Virus record (IMG/VR): IMGVR_UViG_2595698339_000001
Coordinates: 13,368 to 77,367 of that record
Origin: a virus
Taxonomy: Duplodnaviria > Caudoviricetes
Length of the DNA: 64,000 nt
Direction: 5' to 3' (one strand)
Shown: positions 3,401 to 51,724 of the stretch, one piece after another
How positions within the stretch are numbered: position 1 is the stretch's first letter
Layout: each line of letters opens with the position of its first letter
Program-made: the position numbers and the translations under genes
The notes under the pieces: model-generated
What the model saw: only the letters and a program-made list of their open reading frames with translations
Told to the model about the DNA's origin: nothing
Databases searched by the model: none

Positions 3401-5192
3401 CACCAAGGACGCGCAGAAGTTCGGCAAGGACTTCGACCTCGACAAGAGCACCAACGGTGCCGGTGGTTTCTGGGCTCAGATGGGCCAGAAGATCGCGGGC
3501 GCGTTCTCCGAAATCCTGTTCGGCGGCCTGCTTGGTCCACTGATCAAGTCCAAGTTCGCCGAGCTTGACGATCAGAACGTGCCGTACTTCGGCATGAACA
3601 TGAACGGCGGCTACCGCGGCGGATATGGCGGCGGATACCTCCCGTACCTCAACTACGGCGGATACCCCGGCGATGACGCGCTCCTGTCGCGCGTGCCCGC
3701 GGGTAAGTACACACAGGAGCAGCGCGGCGACCTCACCCAAGGTCTCGCCGACTGCTCCAGCGCTGTCGAGGATCTCGTCAACATCATGGACGGTCGACCC
3801 ACGGGTGGCGCCAACATGTGGACAGGCAACGCGGACCAGTGGCTCACTGAGCACGGCTTCGTCAAGGGTATGGGCGGCCCCGGTGATTTCCGGGTCGGCT
3901 TCAACTCCAGTCACATGCAGGCCACGCTGCCTGGCGGCACGCCGTTCAACTGGGGTAGCGATGCTGCCGCGGCTCGCCGCGGTATCGGCGGCACGGGCGC
4001 GGACGATCCCGCGTTCACATCGCACTACTACCGGCCCGCGGGCGGAACCATCCCGCTCTCACCCGCAGCCCCCGACTACGCCTCGACGGTTCGCCAGTCG
4101 ACGGCCGCGGTCAAGGAGCACAACACCGAGGTTGCCAAGGGTCAGGAGCAGGGCGAGAACCTCATGGAGGTTCCGCAGCCCACGCAGGCCGACATCAACG
4201 CGGCGGCCGCGCAAGGCACCGGCCTCACCAACCCGGGCGCCCCGGCGTTCACTCTGGAAGACCTCCAGAAGGAGTTTGCTGGCGGCGGCGGTGGCGAGGG
4301 TCCGATCTTCAAGCGGTCCCCGCAGGTGAGTGCCGAGGGCGGCACTGGTGGGCCACCGCAGCCCATGCGGCCACTCCCGCTGATCACGCACACGCCTGAC
4401 GCCACGGGCCAGTACGGCTCGGGCAATGCCTCACGTCAGCGCCGCGGTCTTCCGATTGTCCCGCCCGCGGGCATGGGCATCGGCATCCCCGGCATCGGCA
4501 CCCCCGGCCAGGCACCGGGTCAGGTCGGCCCGTTCCCCACGCCCAACGGAATCAACGGTCCTACTCTCCCTGGCGGTCCTGGAGCGCCTCCTGGCGCACC
4601 CCCGGGTGTACCGGGCGGGCAGACTCCGAAACCGCCTCCAGGAGCTTCAGGAGCGGCAACTCCGGGCGCGGCACGGCCGCAGTCCTCGACTGGCGGTCAG
4701 CAGCCTTCCGGTTCGTCCGGTGGCGGTGGCGGTCTCGGGTTCACCCCCGGTGGCGCCATCGACATGGCAGGCCAGGCGGCGGCCGCGGCGGCAAACGCCT
4801 TCGCACCCGGATCGGGCATCGCTGTCCAGAAGGGCATGGAGGTCGCCAACCGGGCCATGAAGTTCGGTGGCCAGCTGATCGGTATCGGCGCCGAGGGTCT
4901 CATGGAGACCTTCCTGCTGAACGACTCACCGCTAGCGGACCCGTCCAAGTCGTGGTTCGGCAAGGTCGCCATGGGTATCGGCAACATCAAGCCCGCGGGG
5001 GAGAACACCGCTGGCAAGACGACGCCACCCCTGAAGCCCGAGGAGAACCCTCAGCAGCATCAGGGCAACGGGCAGCCGCCTGGACCTCTCGTCAACATCG
5101 AGCAGCAGAACATCGCCAAGGGCGACGGCGGCGAGGCCGCGCGTGACACCGCACGCACGTTCAACCAGTACCAGGGAGGGGGAGCCCGATAA
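456..5192 (+). CDS. tape measure protein
   Basis: 1578 aa, Ala/Gly-rich helical protein after the chaperone genes; internal DCSS...SHMQATL peptidase-like motif. Confidence 0.95.
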   Translation: MAEKGIFLDILPRFDMAATSALLQKVQGIFGKAGKEVGVKFGTEAETALRRYQAELTRAENRASQSYYRMRKAQGELQVAEARANELRAKNIEATSARMIAAENRIADAKRKQAAEAKIYAAREAEANAARAASAEQGALVAGAGASKVKSILNGVGIAATATTAAVAFGTGKLAGEFESTGERIKVATRMPIEELKKLQDGLLQLGPTVGYTASELQEASYTVSKAGFRDAADALAILKAGAQLARTEGVGLEEAMNGLTTTLVDFHIPASQVADVASQFQYAFGNAKAPIDQLMGSLHNIEPVMKTFAGDSGDPKSFVAQVGTMLAQMTQTGASADQSSQNIRNMLLHLVSANGPQREIAGLLGVDMDALSKQLKDPNVGPLGVMKQINDAIKKDMGPDGNVILPAMYESSQLAENMAFTYQQLTAEGKAFADAIQNGTLSAKDMKNLRLQEKLEPALKDWDAMHQKINSINPILKKNQDQVQTYASLVKKITGTDQGMTVFSSLFGDDKTTAKTMELWKTAREAHADANGDVEHASEVMDTYRAKLDATHSAMHSLGIQMGETFLPYIKGMADGLRNVAQWLGEHQTLTKALITTVGSLAAAWVTVKIAVAAVKTVEAIAGAVSFIRGVAIPAVQMLASAYLGIVPAAGKGAAAVTASAATQTAALGGVTTAARTAATAVSGIGFAALAAIPSLIALSSAIFMAEQAKQNGHAFGGNPNDPNKHREYTVDQAQGYQLPEGIPAAGSTEAEQAISAAAVGGDEGAKWVASATSKGDQAMRYGWLMTHGGLGVVAFQPPTDYSAPRPGNWNSQMAGGGNGPHGGRGMQLADERYKPPASPVDLQLQAAMEAAGISPDTLEGLTGAGDGAPSTGLFPGMTGGGSDGTVKLPDAPVLPVDTSVPGGIPGMPEDPSVYSAESSYINDRHKLAEKRARVTQLEQSGVATEDDIQKAKNEALDAERDFHQAELRLNEARKDQYEKFTKDAQKFGKDFDLDKSTNGAGGFWAQMGQKIAGAFSEILFGGLLGPLIKSKFAELDDQNVPYFGMNMNGGYRGGYGGGYLPYLNYGGYPGDDALLSRVPAGKYTQEQRGDLTQGLADCSSAVEDLVNIMDGRPTGGANMWTGNADQWLTEHGFVKGMGGPGDFRVGFNSSHMQATLPGGTPFNWGSDAAAARRGIGGTGADDPAFTSHYYRPAGGTIPLSPAAPDYASTVRQSTAAVKEHNTEVAKGQEQGENLMEVPQPTQADINAAAAQGTGLTNPGAPAFTLEDLQKEFAGGGGGEGPIFKRSPQVSAEGGTGGPPQPMRPLPLITHTPDATGQYGSGNASRQRRGLPIVPPAGMGIGIPGIGTPGQAPGQVGPFPTPNGINGPTLPGGPGAPPGAPPGVPGGQTPKPPPGASGAATPGAARPQSSTGGQQPSGSSGGGGGLGFTPGGAIDMAGQAAAAAANAFAPGSGIAVQKGMEVANRAMKFGGQLIGIGAEGLMETFLLNDSPLADPSKSWFGKVAMGIGNIKPAGENTAGKTTPPLKPEENPQQHQGNGQPPGPLVNIEQQNIAKGDGGEAARDTARTFNQYQGGGAR

Positions 5193-6883: not shown

Positions 6884-8550
6884 GGTACGAAGACCCGGCA
6901 AATCTCCACGCACGCCTCCGCGCAGACCCGTACAACGCAGCAACCGCCGCACAAATGGCGGCGCTGGCGCAGATCAATCCGCCAGATGACACTGTCGTCA
7001 CCTTCTATGGGAAGACGTACGGGATCGCGGGGGTGTCCTCGGACTACATCGAGGTCACCGCGGAGTTCCCACGCAATGCGGTAGAGACCGCGACAATCGT
7101 CCTCAAGCACTCGGACCCCATGGTCCCGCACGTCATGAAGTGCTACGAAGAGGTTGTCCCGGTCACTATCGAAATCGGGGCCATGCGATGGTCCGGTCGG
7201 GTCGACACATTCGATTATGCAATGAAGGACGGTGAATACACCGTCACACTCCAGTGCGTAGGCGACTACAACTGGTTTAACAAGATTCTCGTTTGGCCGA
7301 ACTGGCTATTGCCAATTCAGGTACAAATTCCCTCACGGGCCGTGTTTATCGGTCCCGCCATCACTTGCCTCAAAACTATGATTGGCGAACAGTGCCTACG
7401 CCTGCAATTGGGCATGTGGGAACTGGTCAACAATCTCGGCTCTGGAAACCTCGACTGGCAAGCCTGGTTCGGCACCGCGCTGATGAGCGACGGCAATCCG
7501 CTGGACACGCTCATGACGCCCATTGTGGTGGTCCCCACTAATCCGCTATTCGACACATCCCCGTGGATTTCGATTAACGGCCGAATGGACAGCGTCGCCA
7601 CTCTGGCGGAGCAGACCCTAAAGGACCTCGGTCTGCATCTCACGGCCAGCCTGTGGCTCCCTGGCGACCCCCAGCCCAAGGGCCTCCTGTTCCCGCTGAA
7701 GAAGGCGACCATCGTCGTGGACGTGGTCGACCGCAGCGGCGTCACGGGTCCTACCGGCACGTTCATCGACGGTCTGATCAAGGACGTCGTGGACTTGCAG
7801 GAGAGCGTCCTGGGCAAGGTGCTGGCGCCGTTCCTCAACCCCGGCAATGCCTACGCCCCCGAGGGTGTGAACATCGCCCCGACTCTTGGCGTGAACTTCG
7901 TGAAGCCATGGGCGCTATTCGTTGACCACCCGCGCGGTGGCCTCACCGAATTCCACCTAAATGGCCATCACCCATTGGCTCATACCATTATCGGTGGCGG
8001 TAAATCACCTAAGTGGCTAAATGATTTGATAAATGCGACAATGTCCTTTTTTGTCGACATTATTCAAATTGTTATTGGCATAACCGGCGTTCCAAGCGGC
8101 ATTTTCGATGGCACATTCGATGACATTCTGCTGGCCTTCCAGCTGATCGAGAACTTCGACCGTCGCAAGAAACTCGGACCCTTCGGGTACCCCGAGTATT
8201 TCGTGCAGACCGGCGCCTCCGCATACACCTTGGACGAATGGTTCGCCCTTCGCTCGGGCATGTGGGACACGCGCGGTTATCACAGCGTCCAGCTCACCTT
8301 CGAGAATGGCTACCCGTACACCATCGGGAAGGACCTCTTCGTCGGCGGCCTGGCGTCCTTTGCGATGCTCGACAAGCTCTACACCGACTACGTCGAGAAG
8401 GTCGTCTTCAAGGACAGCGCGAGCGCGCGCAACCAAGTCCAAGTGTTCATCGGCGATGGCAAGGCGCAGGAATCCCCTGTGGCCAAGTTGCAGCGCCGCA
8501 TCACCGGCTTCCAGGAATTCGTGCAAATCGTCACGATGAGCAACCACTAA
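6871..8550 (+). CDS. minor tail protein
   Basis: 559 aa; RWSGRV, WLPGDPQP, GGKSPKWLN and DILLAFQ motifs of the conserved second mycobacteriophage minor tail protein. Confidence 0.88.
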   Translation: MARVGYEDPANLHARLRADPYNAATAAQMAALAQINPPDDTVVTFYGKTYGIAGVSSDYIEVTAEFPRNAVETATIVLKHSDPMVPHVMKCYEEVVPVTIEIGAMRWSGRVDTFDYAMKDGEYTVTLQCVGDYNWFNKILVWPNWLLPIQVQIPSRAVFIGPAITCLKTMIGEQCLRLQLGMWELVNNLGSGNLDWQAWFGTALMSDGNPLDTLMTPIVVVPTNPLFDTSPWISINGRMDSVATLAEQTLKDLGLHLTASLWLPGDPQPKGLLFPLKKATIVVDVVDRSGVTGPTGTFIDGLIKDVVDLQESVLGKVLAPFLNPGNAYAPEGVNIAPTLGVNFVKPWALFVDHPRGGLTEFHLNGHHPLAHTIIGGGKSPKWLNDLINATMSFFVDIIQIVIGITGVPSGIFDGTFDDILLAFQLIENFDRRKKLGPFGYPEYFVQTGASAYTLDEWFALRSGMWDTRGYHSVQLTFENGYPYTIGKDLFVGGLASFAMLDKLYTDYVEKVVFKDSASARNQVQVFIGDGKAQESPVAKLQRRITGFQEFVQIVTMSNH

Positions 8551-24534: not shown

Positions 24535-24584
24535 ACGCTACAGGCTGAATTCACTTCAGGTCAATTCACTTCACTGAATTCTTA
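24535..24584 (-). promoter_or_regulatory. leftward promoter with operator-like sites
   Basis: Minus strand TTGACC(24564)-N18-TAGCGT(24540); CTTCACTGAATT at 24569-24580. Confidence 0.6.
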
Positions 24585-26027: not shown

Positions 26028-26053
26028 ACACTTCACTGAACTGAAGCTAGGCT
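26025..26053 (+). promoter_or_regulatory. promoter with operator in the spacer
   Basis: TAGACA-CTTCACTGAACTGAAGC-TAGGCT (17-nt spacer filled by the 16-bp operator). Confidence 0.65.
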
Positions 26054-26405: not shown

Positions 26406-27156
26406 ACCAGCGCCGCTTGGCCTGCCAGGAATACGCAGACGTCAGGGCGAAGCCGATCCCGCAGGCCGACGCCAGCACCCAGATCGACAGGCTGGAGATC
26501 ATGTGTGACTGCACCCCGGGGGTCGCCAGGTCGGTGACCGCCCGGGACAGGCAGGCCGCGGCGCCGCAGATCGAGGCGATGAGATAGACCCGCGCAATCG
26601 ACCGGCTCCTGGGGTCGTGGAGGAGCTTGACGGTTGCGCGGGAGCCATATACGAGCAACCACACCAGCACGACGCACAGCAGTAGCCAGTACAGCCGAAG
26701 CCAGGGGAGCTCAGTAGTGGGGGCGGTGAAGAAATCGGGATAGTTCTCCTCGCCCGCTTGAGACAGGGTGAACACCGCCAGCAAGAGCGGCACCGCCAGC
26801 GTGGCCGGTGTCTCCACCCAGAGTTTGAATGCGCGCTGTTGGACCTCGGCGCCCTTGAGGCGGCCGATGACATTGAACGCCGCGGCCGACGCCGCCACGA
26901 TGTAGCAATCGTGCCCGACGTAGTCCTCGAGGTTGTATTGCCCGGTCAGGGAGTGGAGCCACTCACCGAGCGTCGCCGAGGCAAACGGCGACATGAGAAT
27001 TACAGCTAAGCCTTGAAGGGCGACGTTGATGGTGGCCGCCCTCTCCCAGCTACTCCGCCACGTAAGGCGGCGAATCCACAGGCTCCAGCAGACAGAAGCC
27101 AACGTGGCAATGATGAGACAAGCGACGGTCATGTACGTTCCACCCGGATTAAACAT
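26383..27156 (-). CDS. multi-pass membrane protein downstream of the repressor
   Basis: About 7 hydrophobic helices; same strand as the repressor. Confidence 0.8.
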   Translation of the reverse strand: MFNPGGTYMTVACLIIATLASVCWSLWIRRLTWRSSWERAATINVALQGLAVILMSPFASATLGEWLHSLTGQYNLEDYVGHDCYIVAASAAAFNVIGRLKGAEVQQRAFKLWVETPATLAVPLLLAVFTLSQAGEENYPDFFTAPTTELPWLRLYWLLLCVVLVWLLVYGSRATVKLLHDPRSRSIARVYLIASICGAAACLSRAVTDLATPGVQSHMISSLSIWVLASACGIGFALTSAYSWQAKRRWFKAEPVS

Positions 27157-27250
27157 TGCTGGCGATCCCTCTTATCCCCAGCGCCGAGGAAAATGTACTC
27201 TAAACCGTTTAAGATCGGAAGTAGCTAATTTTCATAGCTAACAACCAAAT

Positions 27251-27691
27251 TCACAGCGGAGGAGCGTCCTCGCGGTACAGGGTGGGCTTAACCTGCTTCG
27301 CCGCGCTCATCATGGTGACCACCCCCTTTCTCGTGAGTAGCTGAGGGTCCGCCTCCTCCAGCAGCATCTGCAGCATGGCCTTGACCTCGCCGAGCTCCTT
27401 GTGGACGTCCTCGATGGTGGGCTTGCCATCCATCGCGGCAGGGTAGCCACCCATGCGACGGCCCTCTTCGGCGCCGCCGCCGATGTGCTCACCGAACGCC
27501 TCGGCGTTGGTCACACTCGGACGGTCACCGTGCTTGCACCACTGCGTCATTGTCGACCCACTGAGTCCAAGCACCTCCGCAGCCTGCGCCCTTGTCAAGC
27601 TGCGCCTGCGTATCCAGTCGATTACGTACGTGCTCCAGCGGTCCCGATCTGCGTCGGTCCACTGCTCCTCATTCGACCCCATGCGACACAC
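27251..27691 (-). CDS. Xre-family HTH protein, probable immunity repressor
   Basis: LTRAQAAEVLGLSGSTMTQWCKHGDRPS; divergent from the early operon; alternative start ATG 27682. Confidence 0.8.
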   Translation of the reverse strand: MCRMGSNEEQWTDADRDRWSTYVIDWIRRRSLTRAQAAEVLGLSGSTMTQWCKHGDRPSVTNAEAFGEHIGGGAEEGRRMGGYPAAMDGKPTIEDVHKELGEVKAMLQMLLEEADPQLLTRKGVVTMMSAAKQVKPTLYREDAPPL

Positions 27692-27695
27692 CCTA

Positions 27696-27876
27696 CCTCA
27701 CTGAACTGAACTTCATCAAGATGGGTATTTGCTAGACAATCTATGGGACAACGCAAATACCCTGGTAGGACGTTTGACGTACAGGCAGCAAAGGTTAGCA
27801 ACGTACCCGGTACCGCTGGTTTCGACTTAATCACATGCTTGCGAGCTGCGTTTCGCTGTGCTTTAGTTCACTAAAG
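27696..27876. promoter_or_regulatory. divergent immunity control region with two operators
   Basis: CCTCACTGAACTGAAC 27696-27711 and CTTTAGTTCACTAAAG 27861-27876 in an AT-richer intergenic region. Confidence 0.65.
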
Positions 27877-27907
27877 CGAACAGAAACCGAAGCCGAAGGA
27901 GGGCAAC

Positions 27908-28006
27908 ATGTTCGGAATCCTGAGCGACACCATAAGGCGAGTTATCTTCCGCAAGCAAATCGCGGCCGCCATGCAGCGCCACCCCGCAGGCAGCGCACGG
28001 CGATGA
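27908..28006 (+). CDS. 32-aa first gene of the early operon
   Basis: AAGGAGGG RBS; MFGILSDTIRRVIFRKQIAAAMQRHPAGSARR*; ATGA overlap with the next gene. Confidence 0.6.
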   Translation: MFGILSDTIRRVIFRKQIAAAMQRHPAGSARR

Positions 28007-28140
28007 ACGAACTCCTCCGCCACGACGAAACGCCCACCTCCAAGTTCCTGGCCAACGCCTACTACGTGACCATGTTCAGCGCGGTCGGCATCGGCTCTCT
28101 TCTCCTCATCCTCGCAGTTCTCACCGGAAGGGCATCATGA
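28003..28140 (+). CDS. small membrane protein
   Basis: MNELLRH...; C-terminal TM helix; 4-bp overlaps on both sides. Confidence 0.6.
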   Translation: MNELLRHDETPTSKFLANAYYVTMFSAVGIGSLLLILAVLTGRAS

Positions 28141-28982
28141 CCACCGACATCTACGACCGCGACGGGAACCTCCTGCACGCCTCCAGGTTCGACGGCCTTC
28201 GCGCCGCAGTGGAAGACGCCGCCTCCCGGGGCATTTCCCTGCAGTGGGCCGATCTCCGCGGAGCCGACCTGTCCCGCGCCTACCTCGCAGGTGTCAACCT
28301 GTCCCGCGCCAACCTGAATAACGCCAACCTGTCCCGAGCTCAGCTGCAAGACGCCAACCTCAATGGCGCCTGCTTAATCGGCGCTGACCTGACCTACGCG
28401 GGGGCGATCTCGGCCAGCCTTGTCGACGCCAACCTCGTGCGCGCCAACCTGAGCAGTGCAACGCTCCAGTCAGCCAACCTGGCCTACGCCAGACTGTTCG
28501 GGGCCAACCTCTCCCGGGCCAACTTTGACGATGCCAACCTGGTCCACGCCAGCCTGATAGAGGCCAACGCCGCTAACGCCTCCTTCGAGGGTGTCAACCT
28601 CCGTCACGCCGAACTGGAGCGGATCAAGAACCTCAATCCGCACACGGCCGCCGAGCTGCTGGTCCCGCCCGCGGAAGGCGCCTTCACGGCCTGGAAGAAG
28701 GCCCAGCTCGGGAGCATCGTCAAGCTCACCATCCCCGCCCACGCGCAGCGCTCCAATGCCACCAGCCGCAAGTGCCGCGCATCGGAGGCGTACGTCGAAG
28801 CCATCTACGACGAATATGGCGCCCCCGTCTCGTCGGCGCGCAGCCTGCACGACCCGTACTTCATCTACCATGTCGGCGCGATTGTCACGCCTCGTGTCGA
28901 AGGCTTCGAGCCCGACCGCTGGCAGGAATGCGCCCCCGGCATCCACTTCTTCATCACCCGCAGCGAAGCAGAGGCATACTGA
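28137..28982 (+). CDS. pentapeptide repeat protein
   Basis: About 25 A[DN]Lxx repeats followed by a WKK...RKCRASEA...ECAPGIHFFITR domain. Confidence 0.9.
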   Translation: MTTDIYDRDGNLLHASRFDGLRAAVEDAASRGISLQWADLRGADLSRAYLAGVNLSRANLNNANLSRAQLQDANLNGACLIGADLTYAGAISASLVDANLVRANLSSATLQSANLAYARLFGANLSRANFDDANLVHASLIEANAANASFEGVNLRHAELERIKNLNPHTAAELLVPPAEGAFTAWKKAQLGSIVKLTIPAHAQRSNATSRKCRASEAYVEAIYDEYGAPVSSARSLHDPYFIYHVGAIVTPRVEGFEPDRWQECAPGIHFFITRSEAEAY

Positions 28983-28983
28983 C

Positions 28984-29130
28984 ATGGACAAGGCCACCGT
29001 CATCGCCAAGCTCATGGACATCCAAGAGCTGTGCAACGAAGCCCTCACCACTGCCGACCACAACAACCCGTGGTCCACCGCCAAGCCCTTGGCCAACAAG
29101 ATTCTCGGCATCATCAAGGCTCAGTCATGA
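28984..29130 (+). CDS. hypothetical protein
   Basis: MDKATVIAKL...; abuts both neighbours. Confidence 0.55.
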   Translation: MDKATVIAKLMDIQELCNEALTTADHNNPWSTAKPLANKILGIIKAQS

Positions 29131-29405
29131 GCTTCACCAAAACCGACGACGACATCATCGCCGAATTGTCGGAGCAGTTCTTCCTCGAATGCCAGGGGGC
29201 GAAGTGCAACCGCGAAGCCGAATACCTTCTCTGGCGCCGCCACGGTAAACGTCAGTGTGGCGCCAAGGTCTACACCTGCAGCGCGTGCCTGCGCGACACC
29301 GAGAATCGCTGGATCATCCTGCTCAACTCCGGTGGCGGCTGCGAACGCTGCGCCGAACCGTTCGAGGGTCACCTCTCGGACAACCTGCGCTACATCAAGC
29401 TCTGA
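29127..29405 (+). CDS. hypothetical Zn-finger protein
   Basis: ATGA overlap; several CxxC pairs. Confidence 0.65.
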   Translation: MSFTKTDDDIIAELSEQFFLECQGAKCNREAEYLLWRRHGKRQCGAKVYTCSACLRDTENRWIILLNSGGGCERCAEPFEGHLSDNLRYIKL

Positions 29406-29435
29406 AAACAACTCAAAATTAGTTCCCGGAACGAC

Positions 29436-29487
29436 TGGACAACCCGGAGATAAGCGGGTAACTTTAGTCCAGTGAAGTTCAGTAAAG
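29436..29487 (+). promoter_or_regulatory. promoter overlapped by tandem operators
   Basis: TGGACA-N17-TAACTT (29436-29464); operator matches at 29462-29477 and 29472-29487. Confidence 0.65.
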
Positions 29488-29925
29488 CGGGGGAGATGCC
29501 TCGCACACGAGGACGAATCTCCATCACCCGAATAGGGACTCACACAATCTTCTGACCGCATTCTGACGGTCAATCTAAAGCTCCAGGAAAGCTGGGCTTA
29601 CTATCGCGGCGGCGAGAACGCAAACCTAGAGGACAATCTTCAGCAGTAACTCCGCACTGGCTCTGAGCCGTTGAACGTGGCTACGACGAGTTGGGACGAG
29701 CTTCTTCGCGCTGTTGTTTTGTCTGAGCGTGTGGCATAAGGCCAGAGAAGACCTCTTACATCTTCTTCCGGGGACGTCATATCCCCGGCGCGCACAGTCC
29801 CTGAGAGCATATCCGCTCTATGTGGGATTACCAAGACCACCCTTGAGGTTGAGTCGTCATTGTCCATCACGGTCCCGCTCACATTGGGTTGAGCGTGGCT
29901 GAATGGCGACTCCCTCAAGGGTGAA
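29471..29925 (+). ncRNA. candidate large structured non-coding RNA
   Basis: ~540-bp gap with no convincing ORF; at least 8 helices found by eye, including long-range AGGGACT/AGTCCCT. Confidence 0.6.
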
Positions 29926-29948
29926 AACACCAACCAAGGAGGGTTTGA

Positions 29949-30254
29949 ATGCTGCTCGCACATTGCTCGGAAGACGAGAAGGTCCTACTGACCGCCTACC
30001 TCGCGCTAACCCCCGAGGGTCCTTCCCTCCTTGCCCCGAGGGACGCTGAGTCGACCCTGGCTTCGTACCTCGCCCTTCAGCCCGCCGATCAACCCCTCCA
30101 ACACACCCCGCCGCCGCAGTACACCGCCGCCCTCGGTGAACTCGCACGCTCATTCCACCACCTGAGTCACCGCCGAAAGTTGAAGCAGGGCAGGGGATTT
30201 GCCTCCTTCCACGAGGTCCGCGCCCACCCCCGCTACGGCACCAGCGTCCGCTGA
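29949..30254 (+). CDS. hypothetical protein
   Basis: AAGGAGGG RBS, 101 aa, basic C-terminus. Confidence 0.7.
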   Translation: MLLAHCSEDEKVLLTAYLALTPEGPSLLAPRDAESTLASYLALQPADQPLQHTPPPQYTAALGELARSFHHLSHRRKLKQGRGFASFHEVRAHPRYGTSVR

Positions 30255-30272
30255 AAAGGTGGAGGCCAAGAA

Positions 30273-30380
30273 ATGAGGTCACGACTCGCCGCCCTGCTCG
30301 GTCGCCTCTATGGCTGGCTGGAAGAACAACTCTTCGATCCCTTCCCTGACGCTCTCTCTGAGCTCTGGCCTGCCGAGTAG
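30273..30380 (+). CDS. 35-aa hypothetical protein
   Basis: GGAGG RBS; MRSRLAALLGRLYGWLEEQLFDP...*. Confidence 0.5.
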   Translation: MRSRLAALLGRLYGWLEEQLFDPFPDALSELWPAE

Positions 30381-30387
30381 GTACCCC

Positions 30388-30687
30388 ATGGCCGAGGACG
30401 TCAAACATCCGCACCACTGCGGAAAATGCACCAAGCGCTGGGGAGGTCTCAACACCTCCCACTGCGGGGCCTGCCACACCACCTTCACCGGCCTAACCGC
30501 CTTCGAGAAGCACCGCCACAAAGGCACCTGCCTCACCCCCGAGGCCGCGGGCCTGGCCCTCACCGGCCGCGAATACGAGTGCTACGGCGCCCCAATCACC
30601 AACGACCGCTGGAGACCTGATGCACTACAAGCTCAAGTACGACCGCAAGGAAGTGAAGTACACGATCACCGCCCCCGGCGTGCATGA
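30388..30687 (+). CDS. FDXHR-type zinc-binding protein
   Basis: CGKC...HCGACH.TF..LTAFEKHR...C motif. Confidence 0.7.
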   Translation: MAEDVKHPHHCGKCTKRWGGLNTSHCGACHTTFTGLTAFEKHRHKGTCLTPEAAGLALTGREYECYGAPITNDRWRPDALQAQVRPQGSEVHDHRPRRA

Positions 30688-30781
30688 AGAGTTCACCATG
30701 TGGACTGCGCATCGGGTGTGGGACTGGATTCAGAATCACCTGACTCCTGGCGACACACTCCACTTCGTCCCCGAGACCTGA
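30620..30781 (+). CDS. hypothetical protein
   Basis: MHYKLKYDRKEVKY...PET*, GC3-rich codons, GGAG RBS. Confidence 0.5.
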   Translation: MHYKLKYDRKEVKYTITAPGVHEEFTMWTAHRVWDWIQNHLTPGDTLHFVPET

Positions 30782-30787
30782 CCCCAC

Positions 30788-30944
30788 GGGCGCCCGTCCG
30801 GGCAACTCACCCTCCTCGCCACAGGGTGTGGGACGCGCGCGCCCAGCGTGGCTGGCTGGGGTCTTTCCTCCTTTCTACCCAGTCAGTCGCCACCCCATTA
30901 GAGACCCCCACCAAGGTTCCCTCCTTCCCTTGGTGGGGGTCTCT
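30788..30944 (+). ncRNA. tandem hairpins with pyrimidine (anti-SD) loops
   Basis: Three adjacent stems; loops CCTCGCCAC, CTTTCCTCCTTTCT and TTCCCTCCTTC. Confidence 0.6.
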
Positions 30945-30969
30945 CCTTACTTCCCAAGGAGATTCACCC

Positions 30970-31302
30970 ATGAAGAAAACCCTCATCGCCGCCGCGCTCG
31001 CGGCCGCCGCACTACTCACCCCGTCCTGCTCGCTGATGAGCCACCAGGTCTACACCGACTGCACCGTGCAGGCCAAGGACACCCTCCTCGACGGCAACGG
31101 CGACGGCGGCGTCACGCGCACCAAGCGCGTCACCACCACCTGCGGCGCCTTCGACGTCGAGGACTCCCTCGCGGGCGGCTTCAACTCGTGGGACCTCTGG
31201 ACCGCCCTGGAGGTGGGCAAGACCTACGACATCGAGACGGGCGGCCCCCGTGTCGGCTTCTTCTCCATGTTCCCCTACGTCACGAAGGTCACCGCGAAGT
31301 GA
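30970..31302 (+). CDS. putative lipoprotein
   Basis: AAGGAGA RBS; MKK + hydrophobic stretch + LTPSC lipobox-like site. Confidence 0.75.
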   Translation: MKKTLIAAALAAAALLTPSCSLMSHQVYTDCTVQAKDTLLDGNGDGGVTRTKRVTTTCGAFDVEDSLAGGFNSWDLWTALEVGKTYDIETGGPRVGFFSMFPYVTKVTAK

Positions 31303-50587: not shown

Positions 50588-50659
50588 GCGCCCGTGGTCG
50601 AATTGGAAAGACTCCTGGCTTCCACCCAGGTTATGCAGGTTCGAGTCCTGTCGGGCGCT
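50588..50659 (+). tRNA. tRNA-Gly(TCC)
   Basis: GCGCCCG/CGGGCGC acceptor, CCTGG-CT TCC AC-CCAGG anticodon arm, TTCGAGT T loop, U73; CCA not encoded. Confidence 0.92.
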
Positions 50660-51079: not shown

Positions 51080-51339
51080 GGCCCGCGGACAAGGCGTGGG
51101 CGACAATGGCCACCGGCATCGTCCTGTACGAGGCATTCGCCAAGGATGACGAGCTCCTCTCCGAGGGCTGGGACCGATACATGAAGTCCCACCCCGTAAT
51201 TGCGTTCGCCGGTCCATTCCTGGTCGCCGGTCACCTGACGAACACCCTGCCCCCATGGGCAGACCCGATCCACCAGTCCTTCCTGCTTCTCGGTCATGTG
51301 GCCAAGAAGCTCTCCACCTTCATCCATCGCCACTCTTAG
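51076..51339 (+). CDS. small membrane-associated protein
   Basis: AW....GIV.YE....ELLSE..DRY...HP...HL.N.LP..DP motif. Confidence 0.65.
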   Translation: MRPADKAWATMATGIVLYEAFAKDDELLSEGWDRYMKSHPVIAFAGPFLVAGHLTNTLPPWADPIHQSFLLLGHVAKKLSTFIHRHS

Positions 51340-51349
51340 GGGAACAAAG

Positions 51350-51724
51350 ATGGCAACACTCATCGACTACACCCAGATCGCCATACCGGACGATCCCGCC
51401 AAGTTGGGCCTGACATACATCGCAGGCCCCATGACGCTGGTGGGTCCGCCCACCTGGAACTACCCAGCCTTTGATGACATGGCGAATCGCCTTCGGGCGG
51501 TGGGCATTCCGGTCGTCTCGCCCCACGAGCTGCATCCCGCCTCCGAGGGCACCCCGTGGGACTGGTACCTGCGCCGCGACCTCACCCAGCTGGTGAAGTG
51601 CTCGCGCATCGTGATGCTGAAGGACTGGCACCTGTCCCGCGGCGCCCGCCTGGAGCATGAGGTGGCTATGAGCCTGGAGATGGACGTCTACTACCCGCAC
51701 GACTACGCGAGCCTGGGCATCTGA
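51350..51724 (+). CDS. nucleoside 2-deoxyribosyltransferase-like (DUF4406-type) protein
   Basis: YIAGPM..N.PAF...SP..L...W..Y.R.DL..L..C..I.ML..W..S.GARLE. Confidence 0.8.
   Translation: MATLIDYTQIAIPDDPAKLGLTYIAGPMTLVGPPTWNYPAFDDMANRLRAVGIPVVSPHELHPASEGTPWDWYLRRDLTQLVKCSRIVMLKDWHLSRGARLEHEVAMSLEMDVYYPHDYASLGI

Follow-up and report, generated by a model that had tools for sequence, protein, structure and literature searches.

A 543-bp gene-free gap in the early operon of Cluster E mycobacteriophages is, with a probability that we put at roughly 0.55, the template of a repressor-controlled, early-lytic noncoding RNA (ncRNA) or long leader, and would be the Cluster E counterpart of the Pleft RNA of Cluster A phages. 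The gap occurs in a stretch of viral DNA of 64,000 nucleotides (nt) from IMG/VR record IMGVR_UViG_2595698339_000001 (the window, to which positions refer unless stated otherwise). The window represents bases 13368 to 77367 of a 77,367-bp phage record and derives from a Cluster E (Cjw1/Kostya-type) phage. The gap begins with a promoter-like sequence, continues through hundreds of untranslated bases that include, about 180 to 230 nt from the predicted start, a 38-nt hairpin module present also in Cluster A phages, and ends with a ribosome-binding site and the first gene, which encodes a protein of 101 amino acids (aa). An early promoter overlapped by a putative repressor site, the arrangement that marks a Pleft-type RNA, can thus be read from its sequence (Table 1).

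In phages L5, D29, and StarStuff, the operator-controlled early promoter Pleft produces a very abundant and stable ncRNA of about 500 nt, which is processed into species of 100 to 400 nt and whose region is toxic to Mycobacterium smegmatis (Dedrick 2017, PMC5712189). According to the same paper, about 90% of Pleft transcripts end at 51,140 to 51,190, before gene 89, by a process described as unclear, and the genes downstream receive about 10% of transcripts; an L5 deletion of 51,195 to 51,407 was unobtainable, and one of 51,407 to 51,619 was obtainable. In D29, the sharpest peak lies immediately upstream of gene 89 (2025 preprint, 10.1101/2025.11.21.689395).

The Cluster E gap resembles these loci in that it, too, lies directly downstream of a putative operator-overlapped early promoter and runs for about 500 bp without a credible open reading frame (ORF) before the first early gene. 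Its transcribed strand carries a hairpin homologous to one in L5 (51148-51196), and the L5 copy sits at the place where about 90% of Pleft transcripts end. The preliminary description of this DNA took the RNA to be without precedent, a view that gives way to the Cluster A Pleft ncRNA (PMC5712189), with its same layout and shared hairpin. The two are not interchangeable, since the likeness in sequence is limited to the module, which in L5 lies inside a tRNA-like domain with a T-arm, whereas Cluster E has no T-arm. L5 also has three tandem stoperator/promoter units versus one promoter in Cluster E, whose gap for its part is predicted to contain a four-way junction and an 86-nt hairpin not present in Cluster A. 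Because the T-arm is absent and the gap has its own junction and long hairpin, we class it with the early-lytic ncRNAs of temperate mycobacteriophages and not with a strict L5 RNA family. Abundance, stability, toxicity, and essentiality have been shown for L5.

The hairpin module in Cluster E and Cluster A

In the module, an outer helix of 7 bp is separated from an inner helix of 5 bp by an asymmetric internal loop (one base/four bases), and a loop of 7 nt caps the inner helix. BLAST searches recovered a 42-nt piece (29660-29701) at 90.5 to 92.9% identity in Cluster A phages of about 50 kb, and a shorter query added L5 (51163-51186), Lucyedi, and BPBiebs31; the Cluster A matches sit on the strand of early (leftward) transcription. 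A degenerate pattern occurred in 50 viral contigs, 40 of which held Cluster A-type copies in context and 10 of which were chance matches. Among genome contigs, one of seven pattern stretches was in context, in a prophage of Mycolicibacterium houstonense, the other six being chance occurrences in unrelated sequence, so this search found no host copy outside that prophage; of 17 such stretches in metagenome contigs, one was in context. A covariance model, with 40 candidates scored per genome, matched 1 of the 151 genomes of the family, and this was the same prophage. The model detects a single copy in the window (29653-29701, 61.4 bits), a single copy in the whole phage, and exactly one copy in each Cluster A locus searched.

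Fourteen distinct gapless versions of the module (Cluster E, nine A1 variants, L5, Lucyedi, one further Cluster A type, and the prophage) pair in 95.8% of cells, as opposed to 83.0 ± 1.9% in shuffles (0 of 500), although these versions amount to only about six independent lineages and the structure was derived from the same sequences. The preliminary description had proposed a search for covariation among homologs, and it is in the other phages that compensatory changes appear: both sides change in 6 of the 7 pairs of the outer helix, and slid registers pair in at most 43.5% of cells. Within the inner part, variation is confined to the loop. Three outer-helix changes specific to Cluster E yield U-G, G-U, and G-U pairs, and the inner helix ends in an invariant G-U. 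Because such pairs are mismatches on the opposite strand, the module is selected on the + (transcribed) strand. Judged by sequence comparison, this hairpin is genuine and belongs to the transcribed strand, and a host or phage factor likely makes contact there.

The best match to the module (39 of 42) comes from a cassette of about 300 bp in A1 phages, which consists of a stoperator-overlapped TTGACA-type promoter, a body of about 230 nt containing the module, a second stoperator, and a ribosome-binding site. Like the Cluster E gap, the cassette thus has a promoter overlapped by the repressor's site, a noncoding body, a ribosome-binding site, and a gene. In contrast to the gap, it has a shorter body, carries a T-arm-like hairpin and the second stoperator after the module, and sits before varied genes. 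At least 80% of the cassette is carried by 263 of the 403 matching records, and it is highly conserved, with the genes on either side varying among phages. In some of the records, a small "hypothetical protein" is annotated across the cassette, and our literature search found no paper on this cassette (Bxb1, KSSJEB, Fenn, and others). Throughout Cluster A, the module is always located in a noncoding stretch, with a stoperator-overlapped promoter in the loci that were read through.

All 47 Cluster A-type copies examined are followed within 140 nt by a T-arm with a 5-bp helix and the loop TTCGATT, the loop being the term by which the T-arm was searched. In its eight distinct forms, 100% of the cells of the 5-bp helix pair, and four of the five pairs change on both sides. 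The 3' region of the L5 RNA folds in a tRNA-like manner: it has an acceptor-like helix and a D-like hairpin, the module serves as a long "anticodon arm," and the T-arm completes the domain; the same fold occurs in two further loci (about 664-752 and, on the − strand, about 7335-7420, in locus coordinates). In L5-type phages, the module occupies the place of the anticodon arm; its copies in A1 phages and in the prophage come before the tRNA-like part. The contig of M. houstonense DSM 44676 (1264-1400, locus coordinates) has the module and, about 20 nt later, a fuller cloverleaf with an acceptor-like helix, a D-like hairpin with an L5-type loop, its own anticodon-like arm, and a T-arm, followed by a stoperator-like word. 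The likeness to tRNA is weak by existing models: the tRNA-Sec model scores 22.1 bits on L5 (51228-51133, − strand; E = 0.5, threshold of 47) and 20.9 bits on a related phage and has no match in the M. houstonense prophage, and ARAGORN reports zero tRNAs in five Cluster A loci. We found no paper describing a tRNA-like element in the Pleft RNA, and the term "tRNA-like" occurs 0 times in the main text of PMC5712189.

Comparable elements are known in other phages. Coliphage T7 has processing hairpins between its early genes, and HK022 has cis-acting put antitermination RNAs. The Cluster E gap is similar to these elements in having long near-perfect hairpins or paired stem-loops near early promoters or between early genes, and is dissimilar in that it contains zero sequence or model matches to them. 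Separately, the RNA-based prophage origins (PMC7157519) were considered and dropped, as they are located centrally, beside parABS, and not at Pleft.

Putative promoter, coding capacity, and predicted fold of the gap

The preliminary description noted a gap of about 540 bp in a packed operon, and this is borne out. In Palpatine, which is 100% identical over the query, the upstream coding sequence (CDS) ends at 29405 and the next begins at 29949 with zero annotation between them, and the genes that flank the gap on both sides are tightly packed. The 921 bases around the gap are 100% identical to many Cluster E phages (Cjw1, Palpatine, Phrux, Murphy, and others), and 132 records match with at least 80% query coverage, identities among the matches listed being 97.8 to 100%. 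Cluster E is among the least diverse clusters according to its curators (PMC5511906).

The gap is noncoding by composition, in line with the initial view that the region is untranslated. Its G+C content is 53% versus 63% for the window, and the G+C content at third codon positions (GC3) is 0.50 to 0.61 in its ORFs, as opposed to 0.78 to 0.85 in five real neighboring genes. The codon-position bias in G+C that typifies a real gene is absent from every ORF in the gap.

At the start of the gap, the hexamers of TGGACA-N17-TAACTT are present as first described, and so is the overlapping operator-like sequence. Both hexamers are invariant in the nine genomes compared, the sole change being a spacer base (29454) in one genome, and transcription would start near 29471. 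The operator-like word is a 16-mer derived from repeats of the region. When up to 3 mismatches are allowed over the 64 kb, it has five matches versus 0.28 expected, a number reached in 0 of 100 shuffles. Two of the five are both strands of a single palindromic place, which reduces the matches to four places, all within 24.5 to 29.5 kb and surrounding the repressor gene. The palindrome TGAAGTTCA is restricted to the gap promoter and the repressor promoter (27707). The product of the putative repressor gene matches Pfam HTH_31, a helix-turn-helix (HTH) family, at 21.6 bits, under the cutoff of 27; a leftward repressor gene is conserved in all 84 Cluster E phages then known (PMC5511906). We regard the sites as putative operators, of which 27695-27710 would mark an autoregulated repressor promoter and 29463-29478 a repressed lytic promoter.

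The + strand of the presumed transcript (29470-29950, 481 nt) has a minimum free energy (MFE) of −185.5 kcal/mol (z = −4.2), a value that none of 100 shuffles attained, and the − strand of the same stretch has an MFE of −172 kcal/mol (z = −2.3), a difference of 13.5 kcal/mol that agrees with the + strand preference deduced earlier from G-U pairs. Although every complementary segment listed in the preliminary description sits where it was placed, much of the architecture built from them does not form. The multibranch domain closed by AGGGACT (29534) and AGTCCCT (29796) is missing from both the MFE structure and the ensemble, as is the AACTC/GAGTT helix (29648/29688), and a pseudoknot proposed between CTGGC (29657) and GCCAG (29741) does not appear in the fold, the comparative data favoring the pairing of 29657-29663 with 29688-29694. 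A single multibranch domain of 260 nt, or an architecture of about 450 nt, was therefore not recovered; the fold is a string of local elements (Table 1). A T-loop motif was not found in the four-way junction. Among the predicted elements, comparative support exists for the module only.

Variation within Cluster E adds little to this. When the window is aligned to those 8 of the 132 full-length records that diverge most, about 11 columns vary in the gap, too few to test covariation within the cluster. Of the nine sites that vary between 29471 and 29948, seven fall at positions left unpaired by the fold, compared with 36.8% of positions overall (binomial, 0.015); the two others are an inserted A at 29644/45, in a helix of low probability, and position 29944 in the spacer before the start codon. 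The sole indel in the 86-nt hairpin (in Cookies, after 29885) falls in the apical loop. This pattern weakly supports structural constraint in the gap.

The gap lies outside the curated RNA families, as supposed at the outset. A scan of the gap with Rfam 15 gave zero matches at the gathering score, and at E ≤ 10 it gave nothing beyond noise (MIR169, E = 0.57; SNORD35, E = 7.3), no match to the tRNA model, and a best score of 18.7 bits versus a threshold of 80 bits. Over the whole window, the sole match is a tRNA at 50588-50659. With zero matches to Rfam models, a ribozyme, RNase P, transfer-messenger RNA (tmRNA), a riboswitch, and an intron were rejected. Of the roles suggested at first, nothing in the analysis speaks for a ribozyme, an RNA polymerase decoy, or a ribonucleoprotein scaffold.

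Table 1. Features of the gap and of related loci. Positions are those of the window, except for the A1 cassette.
Feature	Position	Strand	Remarks
Gene-free gap	29406-29948	+	543 bp; between the upstream early gene (end at 29405) and the 101-aa gene
Promoter-like sequence	29436-29464	+	TGGACA (29436-41), 17-nt spacer, TAACTT (29459-64); read from sequence
Operator-like 16-mer and overlapping palindrome	29463-29481	+	16-mer at 29463-78, overlapping the −10 end and the predicted start; TGAAGTTCA at 29473-81
5' domain	29472-29543	+	Hairpin 29488-29530 enclosed by 29472-80/29536-43; pair probabilities of 0.82-0.99
Two small hairpins	29553-29599	+	29553-72 and 29578-99; pair probabilities of 0.93-0.99
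Conserved module	29657-29694	+	38 nt; common to Cluster A phages and the M. houstonense prophage
Four-way junction	29727-29793	+	Closing helix and three adjacent linker-free hairpins; pair probabilities of 0.94-0.98
Small bulged hairpin	29796-29829	+	Core 29804-19 at a pair probability of about 0.9 or more
Near-perfect hairpin	29838-29923	+	86 nt; ends 13 nt before the ribosome-binding site
Ribosome-binding site and 101-aa orphan gene	29936-30254	+	Strong site AAGGAGG (29936-42); gene at 29949-30254
ORF in gap	29714-29902	+	62 codons; GC3 of 0.50
ORF in gap	29640-29963	−	GC3 of 0.61
ORF in gap	29121-29573	−	GC3 of 0.51
Putative immunity repressor gene	27251-27691	−	phrog_2745, "transcriptional repressor," E = 5.7e-102
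Operator-word copy, repressor promoter region	27695-27710	−	In the 18-nt spacer of TTGATG-N18-TAGGGT, directly before the repressor start
Operator-word copy, exact	26030-26045	−	Just after the integrase gene
Operator-word copy, palindromic	24563-24580		In a gap between leftward genes
A1 cassette	KSSJEB 3433-3735; Fenn 3502-3812 (locus coordinates)		After the DNA methylase gene; unannotated or dubiously annotated

Possible mechanism and competing explanations

Several observations weigh against a Cluster E counterpart of the Pleft RNA. The resemblance to the Cluster A RNAs covers only 49 of the 543 nt of the gap, and once the module is masked, the alignment scores of the gap with four Cluster A-type RNAs do not exceed those of shuffles. 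The T-arm is absent, with TTCGATT, GTTCGA, and TTCGA not found in the gap. The L5 BLAST match alone is weak (22 of 24, E = 1), the invariance of the inner helix is imposed by the search pattern, and the covariance-model matches on L5 and the other training sequences are true by construction. In Cluster E, the shared 42 nt could be a leftover of recombination that has no function. A generic sigma-70 scan found no promoter anywhere in 27000-31000, because TAACTT fits only the looser TANNNT form, and our literature search found no paper on the transcription of any Cluster E phage or on the gap.

The predicted fold offers further grounds for caution. The gap was initially called highly structured, which holds for its 3' third and fails for the first two thirds: when MFE is regressed on G+C content over 133 windows of 240 nt on both strands (n = 266), 29709-29948 is extreme (residual z = −2.39; 0 of 266 as low), and the first two windows of the gap do not stand out (residual z = +0.39 and −0.26). 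A z-score of −0.2 was obtained for the rod (29631-29724) in which the conserved module lies. The z-scores of the other elements are inflated, their boundaries having been taken from the fold itself; they are −3.5 for the 5' domain (−26.4 kcal/mol, versus −21.2 kcal/mol and z = −1.1 on the − strand), −3.4 for the two small hairpins, −3.2 for the four-way junction (−27.6 kcal/mol), −3.5 for the small bulged hairpin, and −6.8 for the 86-nt hairpin folded alone (−49.4 kcal/mol). Moreover, the junction is equally stable on the − strand and the 86-nt hairpin nearly so (−42.5 kcal/mol, z = −6.5).

An account to which we give a lesser but still appreciable chance is that the gap is purely a cis-acting leader, i.e., a very long 5' untranslated region that precedes the 101-aa gene and early operon and whose hairpins set stability, processing, or read-through, with no function as a free RNA; examples would be an antitermination signal of the put type or a site of double-strand cutting. 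The gap RNA must at least also serve as a leader, because the strong ribosome-binding site and start follow 13 nt past the last hairpin with no promoter-like sequence between, so that transcripts carry the leader into the gene. The exceptional structure of the 3' third adjoins that gene, a second strong hairpin in the next intergenic space (30900-30944) suggests a general use of hairpins between early genes, and a canonical hairpin-plus-U terminator was not reported within the gap. What a cis-acting leader fails to explain is a hairpin with compensatory changes that is common to Cluster A loci whose RNA accumulates separately. Nor does the homologous A1 cassette, which precedes varied genes, appear bound to the regulation of any one gene.

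It is improbable that the gap acts at the level of DNA, as a regulatory or replication region (operators, promoter, and perhaps an origin or recombination hotspot) in which the hairpins are incidental or form cruciforms and the 42 nt are a mosaic relic. The operator-like words and promoter are there, the − strand forms the long hairpin and the junction with almost the same stability, similarity stops sharply at the borders of the module, and mycobacteriophage genomes are highly mosaic (PMC3029335). Set against this, the G-U pairs of the module (the invariant inner pair, the three outer pairs of Cluster E, and others in L5 and the A1 variants) can be accommodated by the transcribed strand alone, which overall also folds better by the margin given above. 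Furthermore, the operators and promoter fill just the first 75 bp or so of the 543, and the homologous region of L5 is expressed as RNA (PMC5712189).

That the 62-codon ORF (29714-29902) or another small ORF encodes a functional product is very improbable: the case for it, a CDS call in 3 of 9 inspected records (Cookies, Tomaszewski, and Kanye) and a match to phrog_4633 that exists because of those same annotations, is countered by a GC3 far from that of the neighboring genes, by a TTG start upstream of which a ribosome-binding site was not found, by a 1-nt insertion in Cookies that shifts its end, by its omission from the other six records, and by its overlap with the four-way junction and most of the 86-nt hairpin.

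Under the reading that we prefer, an early-lytic ncRNA or long leader, we infer the promoter activity of the gap as well as the ends and the stability of its transcript. In a lysogen, the HTH repressor would occupy the word over the −10 hexamer and start, along with the copy in its own promoter. Upon infection or induction, host RNA polymerase would start near 29471 and produce an untranslated RNA of about 480 nt; the start is predicted, and the noncoding nature of the stretch is evident from its composition. The RNA is modeled to fold into independent local elements: the 5' hairpin, the two small hairpins, the module, the four-way junction, and the 86-nt hairpin.

Every step after transcription is argued by analogy. 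Most of the RNA would probably accumulate as stable noncoding species, one of them of about 230 nt and ending at the module, as most L5 transcripts end at the site of the homologous hairpin. A further possible end is the 86-nt hairpin, a candidate double-strand-specific cut site or protective 3' end. Intrinsic terminators are expected to have a U-tract after the hairpin. Because a U-tract is absent here, we read this hairpin as a candidate processing or stability element and not as a terminator. A minority of transcripts would continue as the leader of the 101-aa gene and of the early operon behind it, and the existence of such a leader follows from the gene layout.

More speculatively, the module may be a portable RNA hairpin carried in the first lytic transcript of unrelated temperate mycobacteriophages, where it would engage the same host factor, a proposal that we consider unlikely as it stands. 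The essential and toxic Pleft RNA of L5 would then use the module as an "anticodon arm," and Cluster E would have grafted it into a different scaffold. Candidates for the host factor include a tRNA-directed processing, modification, or defense enzyme and the machinery that forms the 3' end of this RNA.

Neighboring genes and biological meaning

The 101-aa protein downstream of the gap is confined to Cluster E by its matches: all 132 tblastn matches are in this cluster, at 99% identity or more. It has two matches among 5.8 billion proteins, and its sole family is phrog_2744, of unknown function. Searches gave no Pfam match and no relatives in viral or genome contigs, sets from which near-identical records may be missing, and the protein atlas provided no lead. 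Quink (KF279417/NC_022330) labels it "RDF protein," for which family support was not found, and the other records listed label it "hypothetical protein." The partnership between this protein and the RNA that was originally suggested has nothing to link the two, the evidence being neither for nor against it.

Farther along the operon, an ORF on the + strand (30388-30687) matches Pfam Phage_zn_bind_3 (FDXHR zinc-binding) with an E value of 3.8e-19. Several Cluster E records annotate it, and Palpatine calls an overlapping gene (30620-30781) in another frame. The hairpin at 30900-30944 (+ strand) is a perfect 17-bp stem with an 11-nt loop, located before a lipoprotein-like gene that starts at 30970, and it may be another processing or termination signal of the same early operon. 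In the switch region, between the repressor gene and the first rightward genes, there is an inverted repeat, GGGTATTTGC ... GCAAATACCC (27716-27770), which may represent a second kind of operator.

One practical consequence concerns annotation: the small gene called in the gap in 3 of the 9 inspected Cluster E records is probably not real. The broader consequences concern the early ncRNA of Cluster A, whose function and 3'-end formation were left unexplained (PMC5712189). If Cluster E has a counterpart, the phenomenon extends beyond one cluster. Comparison of the two isolates a 38-nt hairpin as the sole element that they have in common, which offers a small target for mutagenesis or pull-down, and it points to a tRNA-like domain exactly where the L5 RNA ends. 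If the module is indeed portable, this would explain how the end of the L5 RNA is defined, a question that its authors left open.

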